Of a stretch of DNA of 64,000 nucleotides, positions 15,233 through 24,374 are shown in pieces. Each line of letters begins with the position of its first letter. The stretch's first letter is position 1. Where the stretch lies: positions 96,001 to 160,000 of the forward strand of contig JAWXAQ010000015.1 in the NCBI GenBank assembly GCA_034439575.1, read 5' to 3'. The notes under the pieces were generated by a model. The model saw only the letters and a list, made by a program, of their open reading frames with translations. It was not told where the DNA came from and ran no database searches. A program made the translations under genes and the position numbers. This stretch comes from Leptospira sp. Its GTDB lineage: Bacteria > Spirochaetota > Leptospiria > Leptospirales > Leptospiraceae.

Positions 15233-16228
15233 TCAATTTATATCTTTTTGTTTTTTTAGTAAATTTTTTGACTTTTGATTTTCATTATTTAGCTTTGCCA
15301 GATTGCGATTCCATTTTTTGACACCAATTCTTTGAATGCTTGTATTTTGAAATATATTATCAAATTCTTCTGAATTTAAAAGCTTCGATAAATTTAAATT
15401 TTCTTCAGCAAATATACCTCTAGGTTGAAATTCTGAAACTCGTGATTCAATTTGATTTCGTTTTGCTTTGATTTGATTCCATGGACAAACTTCCTGACAA
15501 ATATCACATCCATAGAGCCAGCCATTTAGAGAAATATCTTCAGGAATATCATCATTCTCATTTTCTATATTATGTTGTGATATGCATAGACTAGCATTGA
15601 TTTGGTATTCAGCAAATAAAGCACCAGTGGGACACGCATCTAAACAAGCGCGACAACTTCCACAATGATCAGTAGAAATATTTAAAGGTATTTCCCATTC
15701 GTAATCTGTCAGGATTGTGGAAATAAAAAAATAAGATCCTATTTCAGGATGGATTAAATTTGTATTTTTTCCCATCCAACCGATACCTGCTTGTTTGGCG
15801 AAGATTTTTTCTGGTATAGGTAAACTATCAACTGATTGTCGAAAATGAAATTCTGGATAATTTTGTTTTAAATATTTCAATAATGGTTTTGCCCTCTCGC
15901 GTAAAACTGAATGATAATCTTCTCCTAACGCATAACGAGACACTTTGGGATTCATACTTGCGAGTAAATCTTCCGACTTTTCGGATCTATACAACAAACC
16001 CAAACATATAACAGACTTGGGAATAAAACCCAAATGTTTTAAATGCAATCGGATTTCCATGCTGTTTTCCTTTGCATACCAACCCATTTGACCATGATGC
16101 CCCGATTGAACCCAATTTGAAATATACAGCCGTTCCGCGTCTGAAATTTCAGCTTTTGTGAAACCTACTATATCAAAGCCTGAACTCAAACAAAACGCTT
16201 TTATCTTTTCAAGATCGAGAGAATGCAA
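15233..16228 (-). CDS. queG: epoxyqueuosine reductase
   Basis: SRYALGEDYH, AGIGWMGKN, CGSCRACLDACPTGA, GCDICQEVCPWN. Confidence 0.93.
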   Translation of the reverse strand: MHSLDLEKIKAFCLSSGFDIVGFTKAEISDAERLYISNWVQSGHHGQMGWYAKENSMEIRLHLKHLGFIPKSVICLGLLYRSEKSEDLLASMNPKVSRYALGEDYHSVLRERAKPLLKYLKQNYPEFHFRQSVDSLPIPEKIFAKQAGIGWMGKNTNLIHPEIGSYFFISTILTDYEWEIPLNISTDHCGSCRACLDACPTGALFAEYQINASLCISQHNIENENDDIPEDISLNGWLYGCDICQEVCPWNQIKAKRNQIESRVSEFQPRGIFAEENLNLSKLLNSEEFDNIFQNTSIQRIGVKKWNRNLAKLNNENQKSKNLLKKQKDIN

Positions 16229-16241
16229 ATTTATTACCTAA

Positions 16242-16622
16242 ATGAATGATATGGAAGCATATCCAACTTTCAATGATAAATTTTCTCATTTACTGCATTG
16301 TAATGATGGGGAAATTATATTATCTATATTTAATCAAATATTGAATGAAGTCCCTATTAAGAAAGATATTGATGAACTTTTAAAGAATGGAATTTTATTA
16401 GCAATTTTGAAATCAATCCTCACACTTATGCAGCGTGAGATCAATCCTACGTCGAAAGAAATTCTTGGCGAATATCAATATCTTATAAATGAAATTGAAG
16501 AAGTCTATTTTAAGTTAAATCCCACAAATGAATCGAATTGGTTAGAAGAGTGTATCGCTTATGGGGATAAAAAAGCGTACCACTGGGAATGGAAACATTT
16601 TGGTTCTAAGGAATTATTTTGA
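16242..16622 (+). CDS. hypothetical protein
   Basis: 126-aa ORF divergent from queG. Confidence 0.6.
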   Translation: MNDMEAYPTFNDKFSHLLHCNDGEIILSIFNQILNEVPIKKDIDELLKNGILLAILKSILTLMQREINPTSKEILGEYQYLINEIEEVYFKLNPTNESNWLEECIAYGDKKAYHWEWKHFGSKELF

Positions 16623-16640
16623 AAGTGAAATAGTGATCAG

Positions 16641-17705
16641 CTATTTTTTTTTAATTTCAAATCGATAAACTCGCTGCATAGCAATCTCATCTAAACCAAG
16701 GATGGAAATACCAACTATAATGTGTTTGTTGATCTTTGAAATTTCCATTAGTCCGAAATTTTCTTTTGTATAAATGATGCTTTTTCTGCGACTATCTTCC
16801 ACTTCAATGGCTCTTTGTGGAATTGGCTTATTCATGGAACTTGAGGTGATATCAATAATTTGAAAGTCAGAATTTATTTTTTCTTCAAATATTTCAGCTA
16901 TGTGCCTATCTCCAGAAAGAATCAGATTTTTCCCTTTGGCATATTTTTCGAGAAGGGATATTAGTTTGCGCCGATCTTTTGGGAAATTACTCCATTTTTC
17001 GAAACGATGAGTATCGTTTAATACTTGTATGCTGGATGCGATTATGTACAAATCCGACTTTTCGTGCAGCTCTTTTTCTAACCAGACCCATTGTTCTTGA
17101 CCAAGTAAACTCGAGTTTATATCCTCATTGGGAATATACTCTCTTAGACCATCAGCTTCTGAAGTTTTTTCTTTGAGTTCGGTTCGAAATGAGCGAGTAT
17201 CCAATAAAATAAGCTTTATTTTTAGTCCTTGGAATAAAATTTTTTCTGAGGAAAAGATACCCTCCCTTTTTCGCATAACCGAATCAAGGGGAACATCTAA
17301 AAATTCCAAGAACAAATCTTTTGATTCATTTTTTAAGGGATAATCTTCACCGACATCATTGTAACCATAATCATGATCATCCCATACTCCTAAAATTTTT
17401 GTCCCTTGTTTCAATAAATTGTAATCTACATTTGACTTTTGTAAGTCATACGCTATTTTTTTTTCATCCATTTCAAAGGTATCTTGATAAATATTATCAC
17501 CTAACCATAACCAAATATTTGGTTCAGTCTTTAGAACGGACTTCCAAATTTTTTTTTCTAATTTTTGATCAAGGCAAGAGCCAAATGCGATTCGATATTT
17601 ATGCATTTGATCGGATTCTTTACTTTGTATAGAATTCTGAAAAAATAGTAATGCAAAAAATAGTATGCTTAATGTTAAAAATCGTAAGGAAACATTTTCT
17701 TTCAT
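16641..17705 (-). CDS. alkaline phosphatase D family protein
   Basis: Signal peptide, IAFGSC, LGDNIY, WDDHDY, LDTR, LSGDRH. Confidence 0.9.
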   Translation of the reverse strand: MKENVSLRFLTLSILFFALLFFQNSIQSKESDQMHKYRIAFGSCLDQKLEKKIWKSVLKTEPNIWLWLGDNIYQDTFEMDEKKIAYDLQKSNVDYNLLKQGTKILGVWDDHDYGYNDVGEDYPLKNESKDLFLEFLDVPLDSVMRKREGIFSSEKILFQGLKIKLILLDTRSFRTELKEKTSEADGLREYIPNEDINSSLLGQEQWVWLEKELHEKSDLYIIASSIQVLNDTHRFEKWSNFPKDRRKLISLLEKYAKGKNLILSGDRHIAEIFEEKINSDFQIIDITSSSMNKPIPQRAIEVEDSRRKSIIYTKENFGLMEISKINKHIIVGISILGLDEIAMQRVYRFEIKKK

Positions 17706-17860
17706 AAATCAAATTTGTAATAGTTAAAAAAGTAAGTCCAGCGAGTTCTAACGTACAATTATAGAAAAAAAAAATCTTAACAAGAAAATGTTACATTTCT
17801 AATCGATCACTATATATTAGTAGAACCGGCCAAATTAAAAGCAATATAAATAAATTGATC

Positions 17861-18017
17861 TCTAAACGAACTAGGCTACACGACGTTGTTCGTAACTGAA
17901 CCTCGTGTTAGTATCAGCGCGTCTTCTTTAAGAGCAAGAAGTCTGACGGAGGACTATGCGCCTTTAGACCGAGCGAGGGCGAAAATTCCGAGCGGAGCGT
18001 GTTTGCCGCAGTTATAC
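17861..18017 (-). repeat. attC-like site 1 (157 bp)
   Basis: On the - strand runs from inverse core GTATAAC to GTTTAGA; GC-rich imperfect palindrome homologous to 18801-18957 (shared AACGAACTAGGCTACACGACGTTGT, GCAAGAAG, TGACGGAGG, AGCGGAGCG, GTTATACG). Confidence 0.75.
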
Positions 18018-18033
18018 GAAGTTTGTGCTTTAA

Positions 18034-18459
18034 TTAAGCTTTTATCATTCTTTCATTGATGATTTTCAAAGACTTTCCTTTCTTTGATTTATAAGAACAA
18101 AAGTCACTATCTAAAGCGAATATATTATGAATATCGGAAACTTCAGAAATTGTCATAAGTGAAGCGTCAGCAAAATCCATTGGTCGATCAAAATATTTGT
18201 CCATGAAAAACAATATGGAGCTAAATTGTCCATTATCCTGGTTTAATATTGAAATAGCATTGTTATCAATCCATTCGATAAATGCCCTTTGTATTCTCTT
18301 ATTGTCTGACAATAAATAAGAAACTTCGGTAACAACTGCAAGTGATGTAAATAATTTACCTTTAAAATTCTTTAGAAAGGATCTACACTCAAGACAATAA
18401 TTATCAGATTCATCGAAAAAAGCAACGATGGGACCGGTATCAATAATTGCTTTTATCAT
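18034..18459 (-). CDS. vapC: VapC-family PIN-domain toxin
   Basis: IIDTG, VVTEV, MDFADAS, LDSDF acidic PIN residues; overlaps the antitoxin stop. Confidence 0.9.
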   Translation of the reverse strand: MIKAIIDTGPIVAFFDESDNYCLECRSFLKNFKGKLFTSLAVVTEVSYLLSDNKRIQRAFIEWIDNNAISILNQDNGQFSSILFFMDKYFDRPMDFADASLMTISEVSDIHNIFALDSDFCSYKSKKGKSLKIINERMIKA

Positions 18460-18700
18460 TTAAGTTTTTTTTCAATGCTTCTTTTATATATTTCTGATGG
18501 TTAATTGATTTATCGGAAATTCCGCTTTTATAAAGTCCGAAATATTTTTCACCTAATTCATATGCTGAAGGTTGCTTTGCGAAATTATCTATATAGTAAA
18601 CTAAAGATTCTTTAATTACTTCCGATTTGCTTTTATTTTCTATTTTAGCAACTTCTGATAGTTTTTTTTCAAGTTCTTCTGGTAATCTTAAGCTGATCAT
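18440..18700 (-). CDS. ribbon-helix-helix (CopG-like) antitoxin
   Basis: MISLRLPEELEKKL...KSKSEVIKESL; start set at 18700 by homology to 19364-19624. Confidence 0.88.
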   Translation of the reverse strand: MISLRLPEELEKKLSEVAKIENKSKSEVIKESLVYYIDNFAKQPSAYELGEKYFGLYKSGISDKSINHQKYIKEALKKNLNDKSNY

Positions 18701-18702
18701 AA

Positions 18703-18748
18703 TAACCTTGTGATACAAGTGTATCACAAGGTTAGATTTTCTTGTCAA
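18703..18748 (-). promoter_or_regulatory. TA promoter and palindromic operator
   Basis: Perfect 15-bp inverted repeat TAACCTTGTGATACA-AG-TGTATCACAAGGTTA (18703-18734); TTGACA on the - strand at 18743-18748. Confidence 0.75.
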
Positions 18749-18800
18749 GAGTTTGTTTTCTTCTTTATTCGAATCAAAAAATCCATTTAGCACAAATATC

Positions 18801-18957
18801 GCATAACGAACTAGGCTACACGACGTTGTCCGTAGCTGAGCCTCGCAGAGGCTTTAGCGTCGGCGCGACTTCTTGCAGCGCAAGAAGCGTGACGGAGGAC
18901 AATGTGCCTTTAGGCCAAGTATAAGTACCAAGCGGAGCGAGTCAGCCGTTGTTATAC
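18801..18957 (-). repeat. attC-like site 2 (157 bp)
   Basis: - strand GTATAAC...GTTATGC; internal hairpins CTTCTTGC/GCAAGAAG and AGCCTC/GAGGCT; same length as site 1. Confidence 0.8.
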
Positions 18958-18969
18958 GCTGGGTCGCGT

Positions 18970-19386
18970 TTACGGGGTAAATAAGTTTTTTAAAAACTTA
19001 CCTTTTAGAGTTTTATAGATTGAAAAATCAGAATCAATACTTATTATTCTTTCTATTCCGATTCTTTCGGAAATACACATAAGAGATGCGTCTGCTAAAT
19101 CCATTGGTAAGTCTGAATATTTTTTCATTCGATTTTTAATATATCTTAAATCTTCGATAGTTAAATCTATAATCTGAATACTTCCTCTTTCTATCCATTC
19201 GAGAAAATCCGATTGAGCATCATTTGAATAAGATAATAGATATATTACTTCTGTGACAACAGGCCAGGTTGATATTAATTCGCCTTTGAAAGACTTAAAA
19301 TATTTTAAACAAGGCTTATGAAATTTATCTTTTGAATTAAATAAGGCAATAATTGGTCCAGAATCAATTAGAACTACGTTTTGCAT
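18970..19386 (-). CDS. vapC: VapC-family PIN-domain toxin
   Basis: MQNVVLIDSG, VVTEV, MDLADAS, IDSDF; start at 19386 overlaps the antitoxin. Confidence 0.9.
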   Translation of the reverse strand: MQNVVLIDSGPIIALFNSKDKFHKPCLKYFKSFKGELISTWPVVTEVIYLLSYSNDAQSDFLEWIERGSIQIIDLTIEDLRYIKNRMKKYSDLPMDLADASLMCISERIGIERIISIDSDFSIYKTLKGKFLKNLFTP

Positions 19387-19624
19387 GTTTCTTATCAATT
19401 TTCTTCTGAAGATATTCTTTGCGATTTTGAGCCAAATCTTGGAGACCAGAATCGTATTTTCCAAATAGATCGAGACCTAATTCGTATGGAGTTTTAACAT
19501 TCCCTCTATTTTCAATATATTCTAGAATAGATTCCTTAACTACATCAGTTCGACTTTTTCCTTCAGCTTTTGCGAATGAATCTAATTTTCTTTCTAAATC
19601 TCGCGGTAGCCGTAAACTAATCAT
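19364..19624 (-). CDS. ribbon-helix-helix (CopG-like) antitoxin
   Basis: MISLRLPRDLERKL...KSRTDVVKESI...YELG. Confidence 0.88.
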   Translation of the reverse strand: MISLRLPRDLERKLDSFAKAEGKSRTDVVKESILEYIENRGNVKTPYELGLDLFGKYDSGLQDLAQNRKEYLQKKIDKKHAKRSSN

Positions 19625-19632
19625 TTTGAAAA

Positions 19633-19659
19633 TGTATCACAAATACGTATTACTGTCAA
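19633..19659 (-). promoter_or_regulatory. putative TA promoter and operator half-site
   Basis: TGTATCACAA shared with the 18703 operator; TTGACA on the - strand at 19654-19659. Confidence 0.55.
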
Positions 19660-20169
19660 ATAGTATTTTTTCTTTTTACTCATTGACTATTGTAGATTAC
19701 CCATGTCCTAATTCATACATTCGCGACCTTGCGCATAACGAATTAATTATCAAATGTCTGAAAAAATTTTCTATTGATAGTCAAAATAATTTCAATATTA
19801 AAAAATTATTAACCTCGATGAATTCCGTTATGATTACTTAGAAAAAAATTCAACTCATTTTATTTATGCGGCAACTAATTCGAGAAATTATCTTAATAGC
19901 GATCAAGTAATTCATGAGTTTTTCAAACCTTATTCTCAAAATAAATATTCATAATTTTTTTATCTGAATTAAAAGCTAACATTAAAGATATACTAGTGCC
20001 AATATATGAATTTTACCTAAACTTTAATTTTTATTTAGATTTCCTCAAATATTAAGATTCATTTATTTAATTGAAATCTTTAATTGTGGCTGATGCATTA
20101 GATGTAAAATGTTTGCAATGATTATCTAAAGATCTTCTGGATCATTAGATAATTAAAGGATACTAAACC

Positions 20170-20544
20170 ATGACACAAGAAGATATAAACTCTAAATTTC
20201 CGCATTCTTCATTTATTTAATTTCTTGAGAAACTACTTTCCGATTTTCAATCTAAACCAAAAAATGAAAGACTTCTTCTGCTCGAAATTACGTATCATTT
20301 CCTAGAACTGGATCTTGCCGAAATATAAATTCCGATTCTTTTTCGATCCAGGTTCTGGCCCTGGCTACTGGAGGCAGACGATGGGACGAAAGCTAAATAC
20401 GACTACGCGGTCGACAATCGTGAATTACCTTTAGACGAAAGTATCCGATTCGAAAATTACAAAATGGCTCTGTTAGAGATCGTAAGAAAAGAACTCGGCG
20501 AAAAATACGAAATAATCGATGAATCGGGTAATGATATCGTTTAA
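20170..20544 (+). pseudogene. pseudogene of a ~124-aa hypothetical protein with two in-frame TAA codons
   Basis: AAGGA RBS, ATG 20170, frame continues through TAA 20218 and TAA 20326 to TAA 20544. Confidence 0.55.
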
Positions 20545-20770
20545 CCGCGCCAGAGATGTTTTGCTTAAGCCCTTTTGCCCAGTTGTATGAAATTTACGAC
20601 TAACCACTGTGATAATGGCGTGAGTCCCAAATTCCTCGATTTGCATTTTGGTCTTCTTTCATAGAAAGTTTTTTGAATTTTACAGCGATTATGTGACATG
20701 ATATTATCGGGAGAATTTAAATATTATAATCCTAGATAATCTTGAAATTCGATTGGGAAGTTTAATCTTT

Positions 20771-22135
20771 GGGAAATTAATGCAATTCGTTAAAATGCAG
20801 ATCGAACGGATATTTGCATCGGAAGTTTACAATAGCTAAAATATTTTCAAGATTGAGATATCTCCAATCGTCCTTTATTACAATCCTGCATCCGTTCGAT
20901 TGTTCATCCCTCCGATCTTCCCTTGAAAAAATCATAACATTTGAATGTTTTACGAAATACGTAAAAATCCAAAGACTTTAACTCTTTCTTTGTTAGCATC
21001 CCAATTCGAACCCAAATGAATCCTGTAGCTCCTAAACAGAATTCTGAATAGGATGTGTAAATGTTGGGAAATTATCGCATTTTGTTAAAATGCCGATCGA
21101 ACAGAGAATTAGATCAGAAGTTTTCTATGAGTAAAGTATTTTATAGAATGAGTCATTATGAATCAAACTTGCCCGATACCTTTCATTCAATGACATATTC
21201 CCACATTCTTTATAACATTCCTGCATCCAGCAGGTTTTCCGTCAGAAAAGCCTACAAATTTGCATATTTTGAAGCTGTGCCTTAAAATTCTAATAAGTTC
21301 GATAGGAAACTCCATTATAAACCCGTCCAAATCAGGATCAAAATGAATCTGGTAGCTCCAATCTCAGAATTTGACCTCGATGCTTACGTCTTTTCATTTT
21401 TCCTAAGGATTCCAAATCTCGAGGGATTTATTGATATTGCAAAAATTCAATTTGGATCGGAAATTTATCATTGATCGAAAGCCATTTAGATTTATTGGAA
21501 TATTAGAATAGAGTGAGTCGTGTCGATTGAAGGCCGTCATTCGGAAATTGACCAAAAATGGTATGTTTTACGAAATGCGAGTAAATCGAATCGACCCAAA
21601 TCCAATACTTTCCCTCTACTCTCGCTCCAATTCCAAAACACAATCCTTGCTCAATTTTCTAAAAATTTCTCATTTTTCCGGTGGAAACTAGAATTTTCTG
21701 AAATTGGCGCATTTCGTTAAAATCCAACAGATGACTCGAATTTACCCACCTATACAATTTCGATCCGAATTTATCAAGACTATCCTTCGGAATTTGACCA
21801 AATTTGGCACGTTTTACGCAATGCAGAAAAAACGCAATATCTCAGATCTCAATTTTACCCCCACTACACTCGCAAAAATCTCATCCAAAATATATCCATT
21901 GGATTCAAAACTCGGACTTTTCTCGGTTTCTATAAATTTTGCATTTTTCCGAAGGAAATCAGAGTTTTCGGAAATTTCAGCAATGCAATAAAAACCAACA
22001 ATCAATCTTAATTTGCATAACAATCCAGTCCTAAATCGAATTTTAGACGCTCGAACCGTTCCCCTGCCCTATTTTTAATTTTTCCTTCGGAAATTTTCTA
22101 AAAATGACACGTTTTACGTAATACAGGTAAATTCC
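20771..22135. repeat. degenerate tandem array, about five units of 270-360 bp
   Basis: Recurrent GGAAATT..GCAWTTYGTTAAAAT (20771, 21066, 21699; degenerate at 21423, 21970) and GTTTTACGNAAT (20947, 21565, 21811, 22111). Confidence 0.75.
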
Positions 22136-22202
22136 GAAGTAGATTAGAACCCTTACTTCCACAAAAGTATCTGAATCCTTAAAAATTATATCATCTGCGC
22201 CA

Positions 22203-22320
22203 CCGATCGAAGCGTAAATCCTTCCCTTGCTAAATAATTTATTGAATAAGGAAAAAATCGGAAGATTGCAGCGTAGAGCGGGACCCGAAGCAATGCTAGC
22301 AATTGATTCGGGGGCGCCCC
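22203..22320. repeat. REP-like GC-rich intergenic element
   Basis: CCGATCGAAGCGTAAATCCTT...AAGATTGCAGCGTAGAGCGGG, then CCCGAA...TTCGGG; resembles dispersed repeats recalled from Leptospira genomes. Confidence 0.45.
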
Positions 22321-22531
22321 AATAATTAACATACGCAAAAATTAAAAATTTTTAAATTAGCTGCGATTTTTAATCGATGATTCATCTATTTATTTTATTT
22401 CAAAAAATGTGCTTTAGTTAGGTGTCATAGAACGCCGAATAGGAGAAGAAATACGAACATTCGCTACAGATTCAATAAATTGTCTTTTTTAATTATTGAT
22501 AATGTAACGGAAATTGTATGATAAATTCTAA

Positions 22532-22939
22532 ATGAAAAAGAAAATGATGATGCTTAAAAATAAAAATTCTATGAATATAGTTCATTTCATTCACCAAACG
22601 CAAAAGTACACAACGTTCACATTTTCAAAATGGAACACCTTACAGTTGAATGCGAAAATTCAGATGCATGGATGTTTATCTACTTACATCGATTTTTTGA
22701 TAGATAGATATTCCTTTAGAGTTTATGAAACATTCAAGTTTAACAAAATCGCCTTAGACCAAGAGGCCATGATTCATTCAGAAGAAAAAATGAGGATCAA
22801 GTGTCGCATCTTTGAATCCACACTTGATGAATTATCCGAACTCGCGGAATATGCAATGATGAATAAAACTAAATTATTTAGAATTTTATTAAAGTGGGAT
22901 ATCAATAATCCAAGTCCGAGACTCAGGCTTATCGCCTAA
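22532..22939 (+). CDS. DUF1564-like protein (putative C-terminal RHH)
   Basis: KMRIKCRIFESTLDELSELAEYAMMNKTKLFRILLKWD strand-helix-helix pattern; start uncertain. Confidence 0.55.
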   Translation: MKKKMMMLKNKNSMNIVHFIHQTQKYTTFTFSKWNTLQLNAKIQMHGCLSTYIDFLIDRYSFRVYETFKFNKIALDQEAMIHSEEKMRIKCRIFESTLDELSELAEYAMMNKTKLFRILLKWDINNPSPRLRLIA

Positions 22940-23337
22940 AAAGAGGCTAATTCGTTTGTTAGATAAATTCTGAATTCTTCTGGAATAGATTTTTTCAAAC
23001 CATTACGATAATCATAATATACTTGTACAGTTTTTGCTCTAACATGTTCTAATTTTCTATTTTCATTCCAAATACTATATTGAAAATCCCAAGATGTATT
23101 TCCGATTCTCGATACCCAAATTCTAACTTCAATTTGGTCACCGGGCAATACCGAAGCGACTAAATCCATTTCGACTCGAGCCAGAACAAATGGAATGTCT
23201 TCCAGTGTATCAATTTTCAGATATTTATTACAAAAATGCAATCGTGCAATTTCTAAATACGAGGAATAACTAGCGTTATTGACTCTTCGCATAGGATCCA
23301 TATCATTAAATCGAATTTGTATAGGAGCGGAGATCAA
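22936..23337 (-). CDS. acyl-CoA thioesterase (4HBT/FcbC family)
   Basis: IRFNDMDPMRRVNNASYSSYLEIAR. Confidence 0.9.
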   Translation of the reverse strand: MISAPIQIRFNDMDPMRRVNNASYSSYLEIARLHFCNKYLKIDTLEDIPFVLARVEMDLVASVLPGDQIEVRIWVSRIGNTSWDFQYSIWNENRKLEHVRAKTVQVYYDYRNGLKKSIPEEFRIYLTNELASF

Positions 23338-23351
23338 TTGTGAAATGACAC

Positions 23352-24374
23352 CTAACGTTTTTTACTCTTTTTGGCAGAATTCTTTTTTCTGGAAACCTTG
23401 AGTACGTTTTGTTTTTTAATAGAAGATTTTTTGCTGATCAAGACTTGTAATTGATTTTTGGGATTTTTGAGTTTTGGTCCTAGATTAAAAATATTTTTTA
23501 AATAGCTTGCGGCCTCTTCTCCTTTTTTAGTCCCTAATTGTACTGTATCATATAATTTTTTTCTGACAGTCGTTGTTAGAGTAACAGGAAGAGGAAGGTC
23601 TGGTGCAATGGTATGAATGATTATCCCTTCTGGTGGTTTTTTAGCAATGGTTCTTCCATGATTGAAGTTGTGGTGGTGCCAGCGTTTCATCATTCTTGCA
23701 ATTTTCCAATTTCTCGGGAAAGCAAACATGCTAGTTAGAAGGCTCAATGGTTTTGAAATGTGTTGGATCGGAGAGTTCATTATAACAATGATTTCTTTAT
23801 AACCCGCTTCGATTAAATCTTGGATGGGTAAGGGATTTAATATAGCGGCATCAGAATATAATTTACCTTCTAACCACTGTTTACCTTTTGTTGCAATTGG
23901 TAGAGAGGTCGCTGCCTTCAATAATTCAAATATATTTGATGAAGTGGCTTTTATATATTCTACACTATGTGAATGCAAATTACTAACAGCAATTCGGAAT
24001 TCAGGAACACCTTTCTTTTCCAAAAATTCTGATTCTAATCGAACTTTTTTACGAAAGATAAAATCAATAAGGTACTCTTGGTCCAAAAAAGTTTTACCTT
24101 GAAAGGGATGTAAAAGAGAAATCAACTGCCGTCCCGATAGGTCCCGATACCATACACTCAAAGCCCTTTCGCTTTTAATAGGTTCTGGATCTTTCATAGT
24201 CACATAATAAGCCGCCGAACATGCCCCAGAGGACACACCGACAACCAAATCAAAGTATTGTGGTCCTAGAAATTGATTTAAACTATAAAGCACACCGCCA
24301 GAAAAAGCGCCTTTCATTCCCCCACCTTCTACAAGCAGGACGCGCTTTGTGCCTTTAGCTTCTGGAATTTTCAA
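23352..24374 (-). CDS. patatin-like phospholipase
   Basis: EGGGMKG, GVSSG, catalytic D in YSDAA; basic C-terminal tail. Confidence 0.88.
   Translation of the reverse strand: MKIPEAKGTKRVLLVEGGGMKGAFSGGVLYSLNQFLGPQYFDLVVGVSSGACSAAYYVTMKDPEPIKSERALSVWYRDLSGRQLISLLHPFQGKTFLDQEYLIDFIFRKKVRLESEFLEKKGVPEFRIAVSNLHSHSVEYIKATSSNIFELLKAATSLPIATKGKQWLEGKLYSDAAILNPLPIQDLIEAGYKEIIVIMNSPIQHISKPLSLLTSMFAFPRNWKIARMMKRWHHHNFNHGRTIAKKPPEGIIIHTIAPDLPLPVTLTTTVRKKLYDTVQLGTKKGEEAASYLKNIFNLGPKLKNPKNQLQVLISKKSSIKKQNVLKVSRKKNSAKKSKKR

Follow-up and report, generated by a model that had tools for sequence, protein, structure and literature searches.

The 64,000-nucleotide window analysed here (the forward strand of contig JAWXAQ010000015.1, positions 96,001 to 160,000, in the Leptospira sp. 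assembly GCA_034439575.1) contains, at positions 20740-22135, a noncoding array of five diverged tandem units of 271 to 357 bp each. The array belongs to an insertion in which a PhoD-like gene is followed by two RHH/PIN pairs, an AT-rich gap, a 64-codon fragment, the array itself and a Flavo-1 hairpin (Table 1). Each unit consists of two better-kept blocks of about 60 nt and of diverged spacers, of 50 to 137 nt and 70 to 104 nt, between them. Block 1 (about 65 nt) reads TTTTTCC-N3-GGAAA (motif C), then TTCGGAAATT, then GCATTTCGTTAAAAT (motif A), and Block 2 (about 60 nt) reads TTCC-TTC-GGAAATT (motif C'), then GTTTTACGAAATGC (motif B), then GTAAAT. Motif A was located at 20782, 21077 and 21709, and motif B at 20947, 21565 and 21811, a fourth and weaker copy lying near 22111. 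A preliminary description of this DNA had proposed five units built on these four motifs, retained amid diverged spacers. All four motifs were found where it had placed them, its five unit starts line up in the alignment of Block 1, and comparison of the units confirmed that the spacers have diverged more than the motifs.

Table 1. Features of the insertion and of the repeat array (window coordinates; bit scores of the blocks are from cmsearch)
Feature	Position	Strand	Remarks
Lineage-specific insertion, ~5.8 kb	16623..22400		between conserved neighbours o126 and o135
Two tandem RHH/PIN (VapBC-like) pairs	18034-18793 and 18970-19624	-	Pfam PIN, RHH_1
AT-rich stretch	19625..20349		GC 0.24-0.33, no open reading frame of at least 100 aa
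Open 64-codon stretch	20350..20544	+	resembles the C-terminal end of a gene; six-frame translation
Block 1, unit a	20740..20804	+	degenerate palindrome GGGAAATT, motif A GCAATTCGTTAAAATGC; 50.8 bits
Block 2, unit a	20911..20971	+	motif B GTTTTACGAAATAC; 49.4 bits
Block 1, unit b	21037..21099	+	49.8 bits
Block 2, unit b	21229..21291	+	most degenerate Block 2 copy; 44.8 bits
Block 1, unit c	21390..21453	+	motif A degenerate; 43.7 bits
Block 2, unit c	21528..21589	+	54.6 bits
Block 1, unit d	21666..21729	+	palindrome TTTCC-GGT-GGAAA, motif A; 53.6 bits
Block 2, unit d	21774..21835	+	53.6 bits
Block 1, unit e	21937..22000	+	palindrome TTTCC-GAA-GGAAA; 50.1 bits
Block 2, unit e	22074..22135	+	palindrome TTTCC-TTC-GGAAA, motif B; 52.7 bits
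Flavo-1 (RF01705), long hairpin	22194..22289	+	46.7 bits against a cut-off of 42; outside the repeat units

Alignment of the five consecutive segments with MAFFT gave 371 columns with a mean column identity of 55%; Tandem Repeats Finder, run at a minimum score of 30, returned no row for the array, because the units are too diverged. When the units were compared with one another by local alignment, four of the ten forward pairs gave z-scores of 25.8, 16.8, 13.1 and 12.7, three gave 5.0 to 6.8 and three 0.1 to 2.8, and all ten reverse-complement comparisons lay between -0.9 and 1.9. Profiles of the two blocks, searched with nhmmer in the 4.1-Mb genome, recovered exactly five copies of each, all inside the array. 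Their E-values ranged from 6.8e-12 to 3e-08 in the case of Block 1 and from 5.5e-12 to 1.7e-08 in that of Block 2, the next-best matches elsewhere having E-values of 1.2 and 0.21, respectively. The same five plus five copies came out of an unfiltered cmsearch over positions 16000-24000. Together, the z-scores and the profile matches put the repetition far beyond chance.

Similarity is not confined to the blocks. The first spacer is alike between units a and b (z = 10.9), a and c (4.4) and c and d (5.7), and the second between units a and b (7.4). Spacers of neighbouring units are therefore homologous, which indicates that whole units were duplicated and that the spacers are not separately acquired inserts. 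The block identities form nested groups: the a-b and d-e pairs are 71-72% identical in Block 1, and units c, d and e are 65-71% identical in Block 2, against 45-57% across groups and 27% for random sequence.

The two blocks also resemble each other. Over all 25 Block 1 by Block 2 pairs, evaluated against a column-shuffle null, the mean score in direct orientation was 17.2 against 13.66 +/- 0.75 (z = 4.7, reached by none of 400 shuffles), and in inverted orientation 18.0 against 13.73 +/- 0.74 (z = 5.8). Block 1 of unit d aligns directly with Block 2 of unit e over 49 columns, and a direct alignment also pairs motif A of unit e with motif B of unit d. Motifs C and C' are one and the same palindrome, TTTCC-N3-GGAAA, and the repeat search grouped the C' copy at 22073-22091 with the C copies, as direct repeats of one family. 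Motif A is itself palindromic (GCATTT-N5-AAATGC), and it is this internal hairpin that RNAalifold chooses. The simplest reading is thus a row of about ten head-to-tail half-units of about 150 bp, each with two quasi-palindromic motifs. Such a tandem repetition produces by itself the order C-A-C'-B, and since tandem palindromes match in both orientations, the motifs will seem complementary and interleaved. The preliminary description had taken the same order as a sign of crossing pairings; the order does exist, and the direct likeness of the blocks offers a simpler cause for it.

How could such an array have arisen? On balance, and with the reservations given below, we think it probable that it is a higher-order tandem duplication of noncoding DNA, specific to this lineage and now in decay. 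It displays the marks of a degenerate tandem duplication, with homology that runs head to tail and extends to the spacers, nested groups of identity and confinement to a single locus. The tandem homology, the direct likeness of the blocks, the palindromic motifs and the confinement to one locus are direct observations, and the array is devoid of coding or RNA-structure signals; the duplication mechanism, the order of the duplications and a present lack of function are what we infer. In this scenario, an ancestral segment of about 150 bp, perhaps an old promoter or operator piece, would have carried the two palindromes TTTCC-N3-GGAAA and GCATTT-N5-AAATGC. Its head-to-tail doubling would have produced a unit of some 290 bp, made of Block 1 and Block 2, which unequal recombination or replication slippage may then have amplified to five copies, within a variable islet of plasmid-like content that also holds the tandem VapBC duplication, and the five copies would since have drifted apart. 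Local direct repeats of at least 60 nt at offsets of 100 to 1200 bp are found at only 24 loci in the whole genome, and the array and the VapBC duplication are two of them. Like higher-order and minisatellite-like arrays, the present one is restricted to a single lineage, retains some homology in its spacers, and is made of head-to-tail units that form nested groups by similarity and contain a half-unit. It differs from the variable-number tandem repeats (VNTRs) used for typing, in that its units are long, far more diverged and undetected by Tandem Repeats Finder, and in that each unit has two blocks that have diverged less than its remainder.

Several observations weigh against a duplication that simply decayed. 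In units d and e, the blocks are 72% and 66% identical, and no similarity is detectable in the first spacer (z = 1.1). Blocks so much better kept than spacers do not fit uniform neutral decay, and need a past or present constraint, gene conversion or a turnover of the spacers by insertions and deletions; this keeps alive the protein-binding and promoter or small-RNA explanations discussed below. Moreover, motifs A and B are complementary at the level of their consensus (13 of 14 positions, with one bulge), three of the 25 Block 1 by Block 2 pairs reach p = 0.002 in complementarity, and a sigma-70-like site, TTGGGA-16-TAAAAT, lies in Block 1 of units a and b. Finally, the covariation test described below has low power, as it draws on five sequences and no relatives.

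A first alternative is that the array is still at work: a DNA-binding protein acting as a dimer would occupy its palindromes, about ten in number and operator-like, and the array would serve either as a titration or decoy device or as a centromere-like plasmid remnant. The conservation of blocks over spacers speaks for such binding sites, the motifs are palindromic (the GCATTT/AAATGC pair within motif A forms in the alifold consensus), and one of the VapBC pairs in the islet is of plasmid type and codes for an RHH antitoxin, a DNA-binding protein. However, TTCC-N3-GGAA is kept as a perfect palindrome in only three of the ten sites, and the genome as a whole shows no enrichment of the motifs: TTTCC-N3-GGAAA occurs 32 times for 26 expected, TTCGGAAATT 67 times for 71 and GTTTTACG 156 times for 110. 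Both vapB upstream regions, compared with the array, lack significant similarity to it (p = 0.165-0.92). A Pfam analysis of 44 open reading frames (ORFs) at 1.2-44.4 kb, which leaves the 44-64 kb part of the window outside the scan, detected ordinary chromosomal genes and no recombinase, integrase, transposase, Rep, Par or Cas family. In addition, no homologous array was found on plasmids, which match the VapBC part only, or in phages, which do not match at all.

Iteron and centromere arrays of plasmids, such as sopC of F and parC of R1, have sites spaced by about 20 to 45 bp. The present array resembles them in its direct repeats with palindromic cores and in the AT-rich stretch and plasmid-type addiction modules that adjoin it, but its palindrome centres, calculated from the block coordinates, lie at irregular distances of 108 to 195 bp, its copies are strongly decayed, no rep or par gene was found nearby among the ORFs scanned, and its DNA has no plasmid match. 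We therefore consider a functional binding array unlikely, if still worth keeping in mind. The more specific proposal, that the ten blocks are binding sites for one of the adjacent RHH antitoxins or for a chromosomal regulator, in a titration or centromere-like array brought by an integrated Leptospira plasmid, is more doubtful again. The suggestion of the preliminary description that the motifs might be alternately oriented protein-binding or recombination sites received no support from either the gene content or the motif counts.

A second alternative is a series of tandem small-RNA genes, or sibling small RNAs, in which Block 1 would serve as promoter and Block 2 would be transcribed as part of the RNA. 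LhrC1-4 of Listeria are tandem sibling small-RNA loci of this type, and share with the array the presence of several units of a few hundred base pairs in one intergenic region, with short conserved blocks. In favor of this idea, the consensus promoter scan placed TTGGGA-16-TAAAAT at one shared Block 1 position in units a and b, and none of the five units departs from AAAA within the -10-like hexamer. Yet only these two of the five units passed the scan at that position, and promoter-like sites in the region (19) are not clearly above their number in shuffled sequences (12.8 +/- 3.9). The two terminator-like sites of the region, at 20406 and 21220, are not at Block 2, the would-be transcripts have only Block 2 in common, with no stable fold, and no small ORF or frame is conserved. 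The likeness to LhrC1-4 is limited by the lack of a conserved promoter-terminator pair and of a stable fold, and we regard sibling small RNAs as improbable. A sigma-54 promoter was also envisaged, and rejected: TGGCAC-N8-GC is present in Block 2 of unit d and is not kept in the other four units.

The array could also be what is left of a protein-coding repeat after decay, or consist of small pseudogenes in a row. Several ORFs of 43 to 95 aa are present in the region, the 95-aa one being the longest, and the 64-codon open stretch that looks like the end of a gene lies just upstream. This explanation appears very improbable. In six comparisons of aligned units, mismatches at the three codon positions numbered 10/7/10, 8/5/4, 4/3/4, 4/5/2, 4/4/3 and 3/2/3, with no excess at the third position, and the indels in those pairs (1 nt in four, 2 nt in one) are never a multiple of three. 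The ORFs do not occupy equivalent places across units. None of 17 ORFs (15 ORFs or fragments in 19626-22338, and the flanking o126 and o135) has a Pfam match over the cut-off, the sole row listed being DUF7271 with E = 0.097, and a tblastx search of 19600-22540 against the genome detected no match beyond the locus, except for the Flavo-1 part. As for the upstream 64-codon fragment, it has no Pfam match, and relatives of it were found neither in 40 genomes of the genus nor in a large search for longer proteins. The units hence do not align as a decayed coding repeat, an outcome that the preliminary description had asked to see checked, and its view of the array as noncoding, with no credible long ORF, holds.

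That description had favored a fourth possibility, selection on a structured RNA or single-stranded DNA, in which C would pair with C' and A with B as a pseudoknot or switch. The two helices were drawn as a pseudoknot on the five-unit alignment. Among the 129 cells of the proposed pairs, 76.0% were standard pairs, against 74.4 +/- 1.7% when the 3' partners were shuffled among units (115 of 500 shuffles gave 76.0% or more), and four pairs had double changes for 2.5 expected (a count attained in 103 of 500 shuffles). The complementarity is specific of its register, because sliding the partner by one to three columns leaves 36-55% of pairs, and this is the one result that speaks for the structure; it shows that complementarity belongs to the consensus, but not to partners within a unit. 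What had been described as complementary motifs is therefore real at the consensus level only. No covariation is seen at the centres of the palindromes either, which read, for C and C', GAA/TTC in unit e, GGT/TTC in unit d and TAA/TTC in unit c. The RNAalifold consensus amounts to -1.3 kcal/mol, with -5.14 for folding and a covariation penalty of +3.84. Minimum free energy z-scores were ordinary, both for the five units on both strands (ten folds, -1.95 to +0.88) and for sliding 120-nt windows over 19700-22459 (-2.76 to +2.16, with no consistent signal). In the Rfam search, no match fell over the cut-off in the units, Flavo-1 alone passing, outside them, and the other eight lenient matches had E-values of at least 0.82. 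As the direct likeness of the blocks already accounts for the order of the motifs, we tend to exclude this hypothesis and give it very little credence.

Least credible of all is a cassette-type array, of the integron attC type, with or without its integrase (clusters of attC sites lacking an integrase, CALIN), or CRISPR-like: conserved blocks do alternate with variable segments, and GTTAAAA in motif A and GTTTTAC in motif B are loosely reminiscent of the attC R boxes (consensus RYYYAAC for R'' and GTTRRRY for R'), but each is off this consensus by one position, the blocks of about 60 nt are only 45-72% identical, the spacers of neighbouring units are homologous and not independently acquired, and no integrase or cas family is present among the ORFs scanned. 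A CRISPR array would moreover have short, almost identical repeats and unique spacers of similar length, whereas the spacers here vary from 50 to 137 nt. The absence of any Tandem Repeats Finder row and the mean column identity of 55% likewise set the array apart from a simple VNTR, whose copies would be alike by some 70% or more over the entire unit, so that the preliminary description was right in calling it neither a CRISPR nor a simple VNTR.

Repetitive extragenic palindromic (REP) sequences and bacterial interspersed mosaic elements (BIMEs) of enterobacteria are dispersed palindromic units of alternating orientation, with hundreds of copies per genome. The array is similar to them in having short palindromic motifs in a regular order in an intergenic region, but differs in that all its strong copies, five plus five, are at one locus. 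The dispersed palindrome of this genome is another element, Flavo-1, to which the units are unrelated. The copy listed in Table 1 begins 59 nt after the last unit, and the units do not match it. Genome-wide, Flavo-1 has 33 matches, 23 of them over the cut-off, on both strands and with very different loop lengths; it behaves here like a dispersed REP-type palindrome, and not like a single-copy small-RNA gene. The motif is listed as a Bacteroidetes motif in a table of PMC2864571, is described in Flavobacterium psychrophilum in sense, in antisense and outside of transcribed regions (PMC9723704), and is named among unannotated regions of Leptospira genomes (bioRxiv 10.1101/2023.03.29.534852). The genome also has a second dispersed family: a GC-rich element of about 130-135 nt, found at positions 232016-232310 of contig C8 and in some 40 other high-scoring segment pairs (contigs C7, C8, C11, C16, C17, C22, C28, C30, C33 and C35). 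It often adjoins Flavo-1, in either orientation and in short tandems, the composite measuring about 280 bp, and is unrelated to the array.

The surroundings of the array are those of a variable islet. In the four nearest relatives, QueG, o126, o135, a thioesterase (73-77% identical) and a patatin gene lie next to one another, o126 and o135 being separated by about 150 bp, from which we deduce that the window carries an insertion of about 5.8 kb. Neither the o126-o135 intergenic region of these relatives nor the loci of their PhoD orthologues, which lie elsewhere in gene-dense regions with no toxin-antitoxin genes or array, has any similarity to the array units. Within the insertion, the two VapBC-like copies are tandem duplicates, with 74% identity across 160 nt. 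Modules that match the second pair at about 75% DNA identity, over 727 bp, are carried by 37 plasmids, all from Leptospira, on which the VapBC module sits among other toxin-antitoxin genes and insertion sequence elements. The segment 18794-18969, upstream of the first RHH gene, is GC-rich in AT-rich surroundings, and a palindrome, GCTTCTTGCGCTGCAAGAAG, lies within it.

The right edge of the insertion is placed at about 22410, where the conserved o126-o135 intergenic motif resumes. This motif, TTAGTTAGGTGTCA..AACGCCGAAT..AAATACGAACATT at 22413-22465, lies upstream of a 135-aa gene of unknown family; in relatives whose neighbouring gene has a protein identity of 73-77%, it is kept in three of the four (L013, L014 and L015; it is not evident in L016), has no Rfam match, and may be a regulatory element. 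For the thioesterase gene (22936-23337), the orthologues of six relatives (G018, G048, G045, G006, G010 and G019) are each reported with a single in-frame TGA, which may stand for a true interruption, for recoding or for a match running past the stop codon. Tandem FlaA genes, as well as relatives with three replicons, fit a Leptospira-like spirochaete.

A search for the array outside this genome, a check that had also been proposed, covered 41 genomes, species-representative genomes, metagenomes, viral contigs, plasmids and phages, and found it in DNA of the same organism only. In the DNA search of the 41 genomes, matches were limited to the Flavo-1 part and three short segments (30-63 nt, E = 7.7e-5 to 9.1e-4). 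Covariance models of the blocks gave, in the 40 other genomes of the genus, best scores of 20.7 and 21.9 bits, against 43.7-54.6 for the copies of the array itself. Exact-pattern scans yielded 0 and 12 single chance matches in species-representative genomes, none extending past the pattern or accompanied by a Block 2, and one single match and 0 in viral contigs. Three loci found in the metagenome scan are 99.95-100% identical to the window and hence belong to the same organism. The array is an orphan, restricted to one locus of one species.

Twenty public runs contain the stretch or part of it, all environmental or metagenomic (microbial-mat, groundwater and lake-water samples among them), with no RNA run listed. 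Contigs from three of them (X5, X6 and X7) are without differences. One lake-water run (X11) departs from the window at 27 single letters within 19600-22600 and by a deletion of 19 nt at 21655; seven of the differences are inside 20740-22135, and those assigned to blocks occur at columns where the units themselves already vary, these variants being too few and of too low depth for a comparison of blocks with spacers. The variant strain differs at 11 of 171 positions in 20083-20253, and the 19-nt loss lies just before Block 1 of unit d, each on the evidence of one contig of low depth.

What does the array tell us about its host? Its crossing 'complementary' motifs are accounted for as the product of tandem, palindrome-bearing units, and a pseudoknot should not be read into such an order unless covariation is observed. 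As it stands, the array amounts to a noncoding repeat in decay, specific to one species and lodged in a variable islet of a Leptospira-like genome from the environment, and matters little for the biology of the organism. If it were bound by a protein, it would constitute a chromosomal operator or centromere-like array adjoining plasmid-derived addiction modules in a spirochaete.

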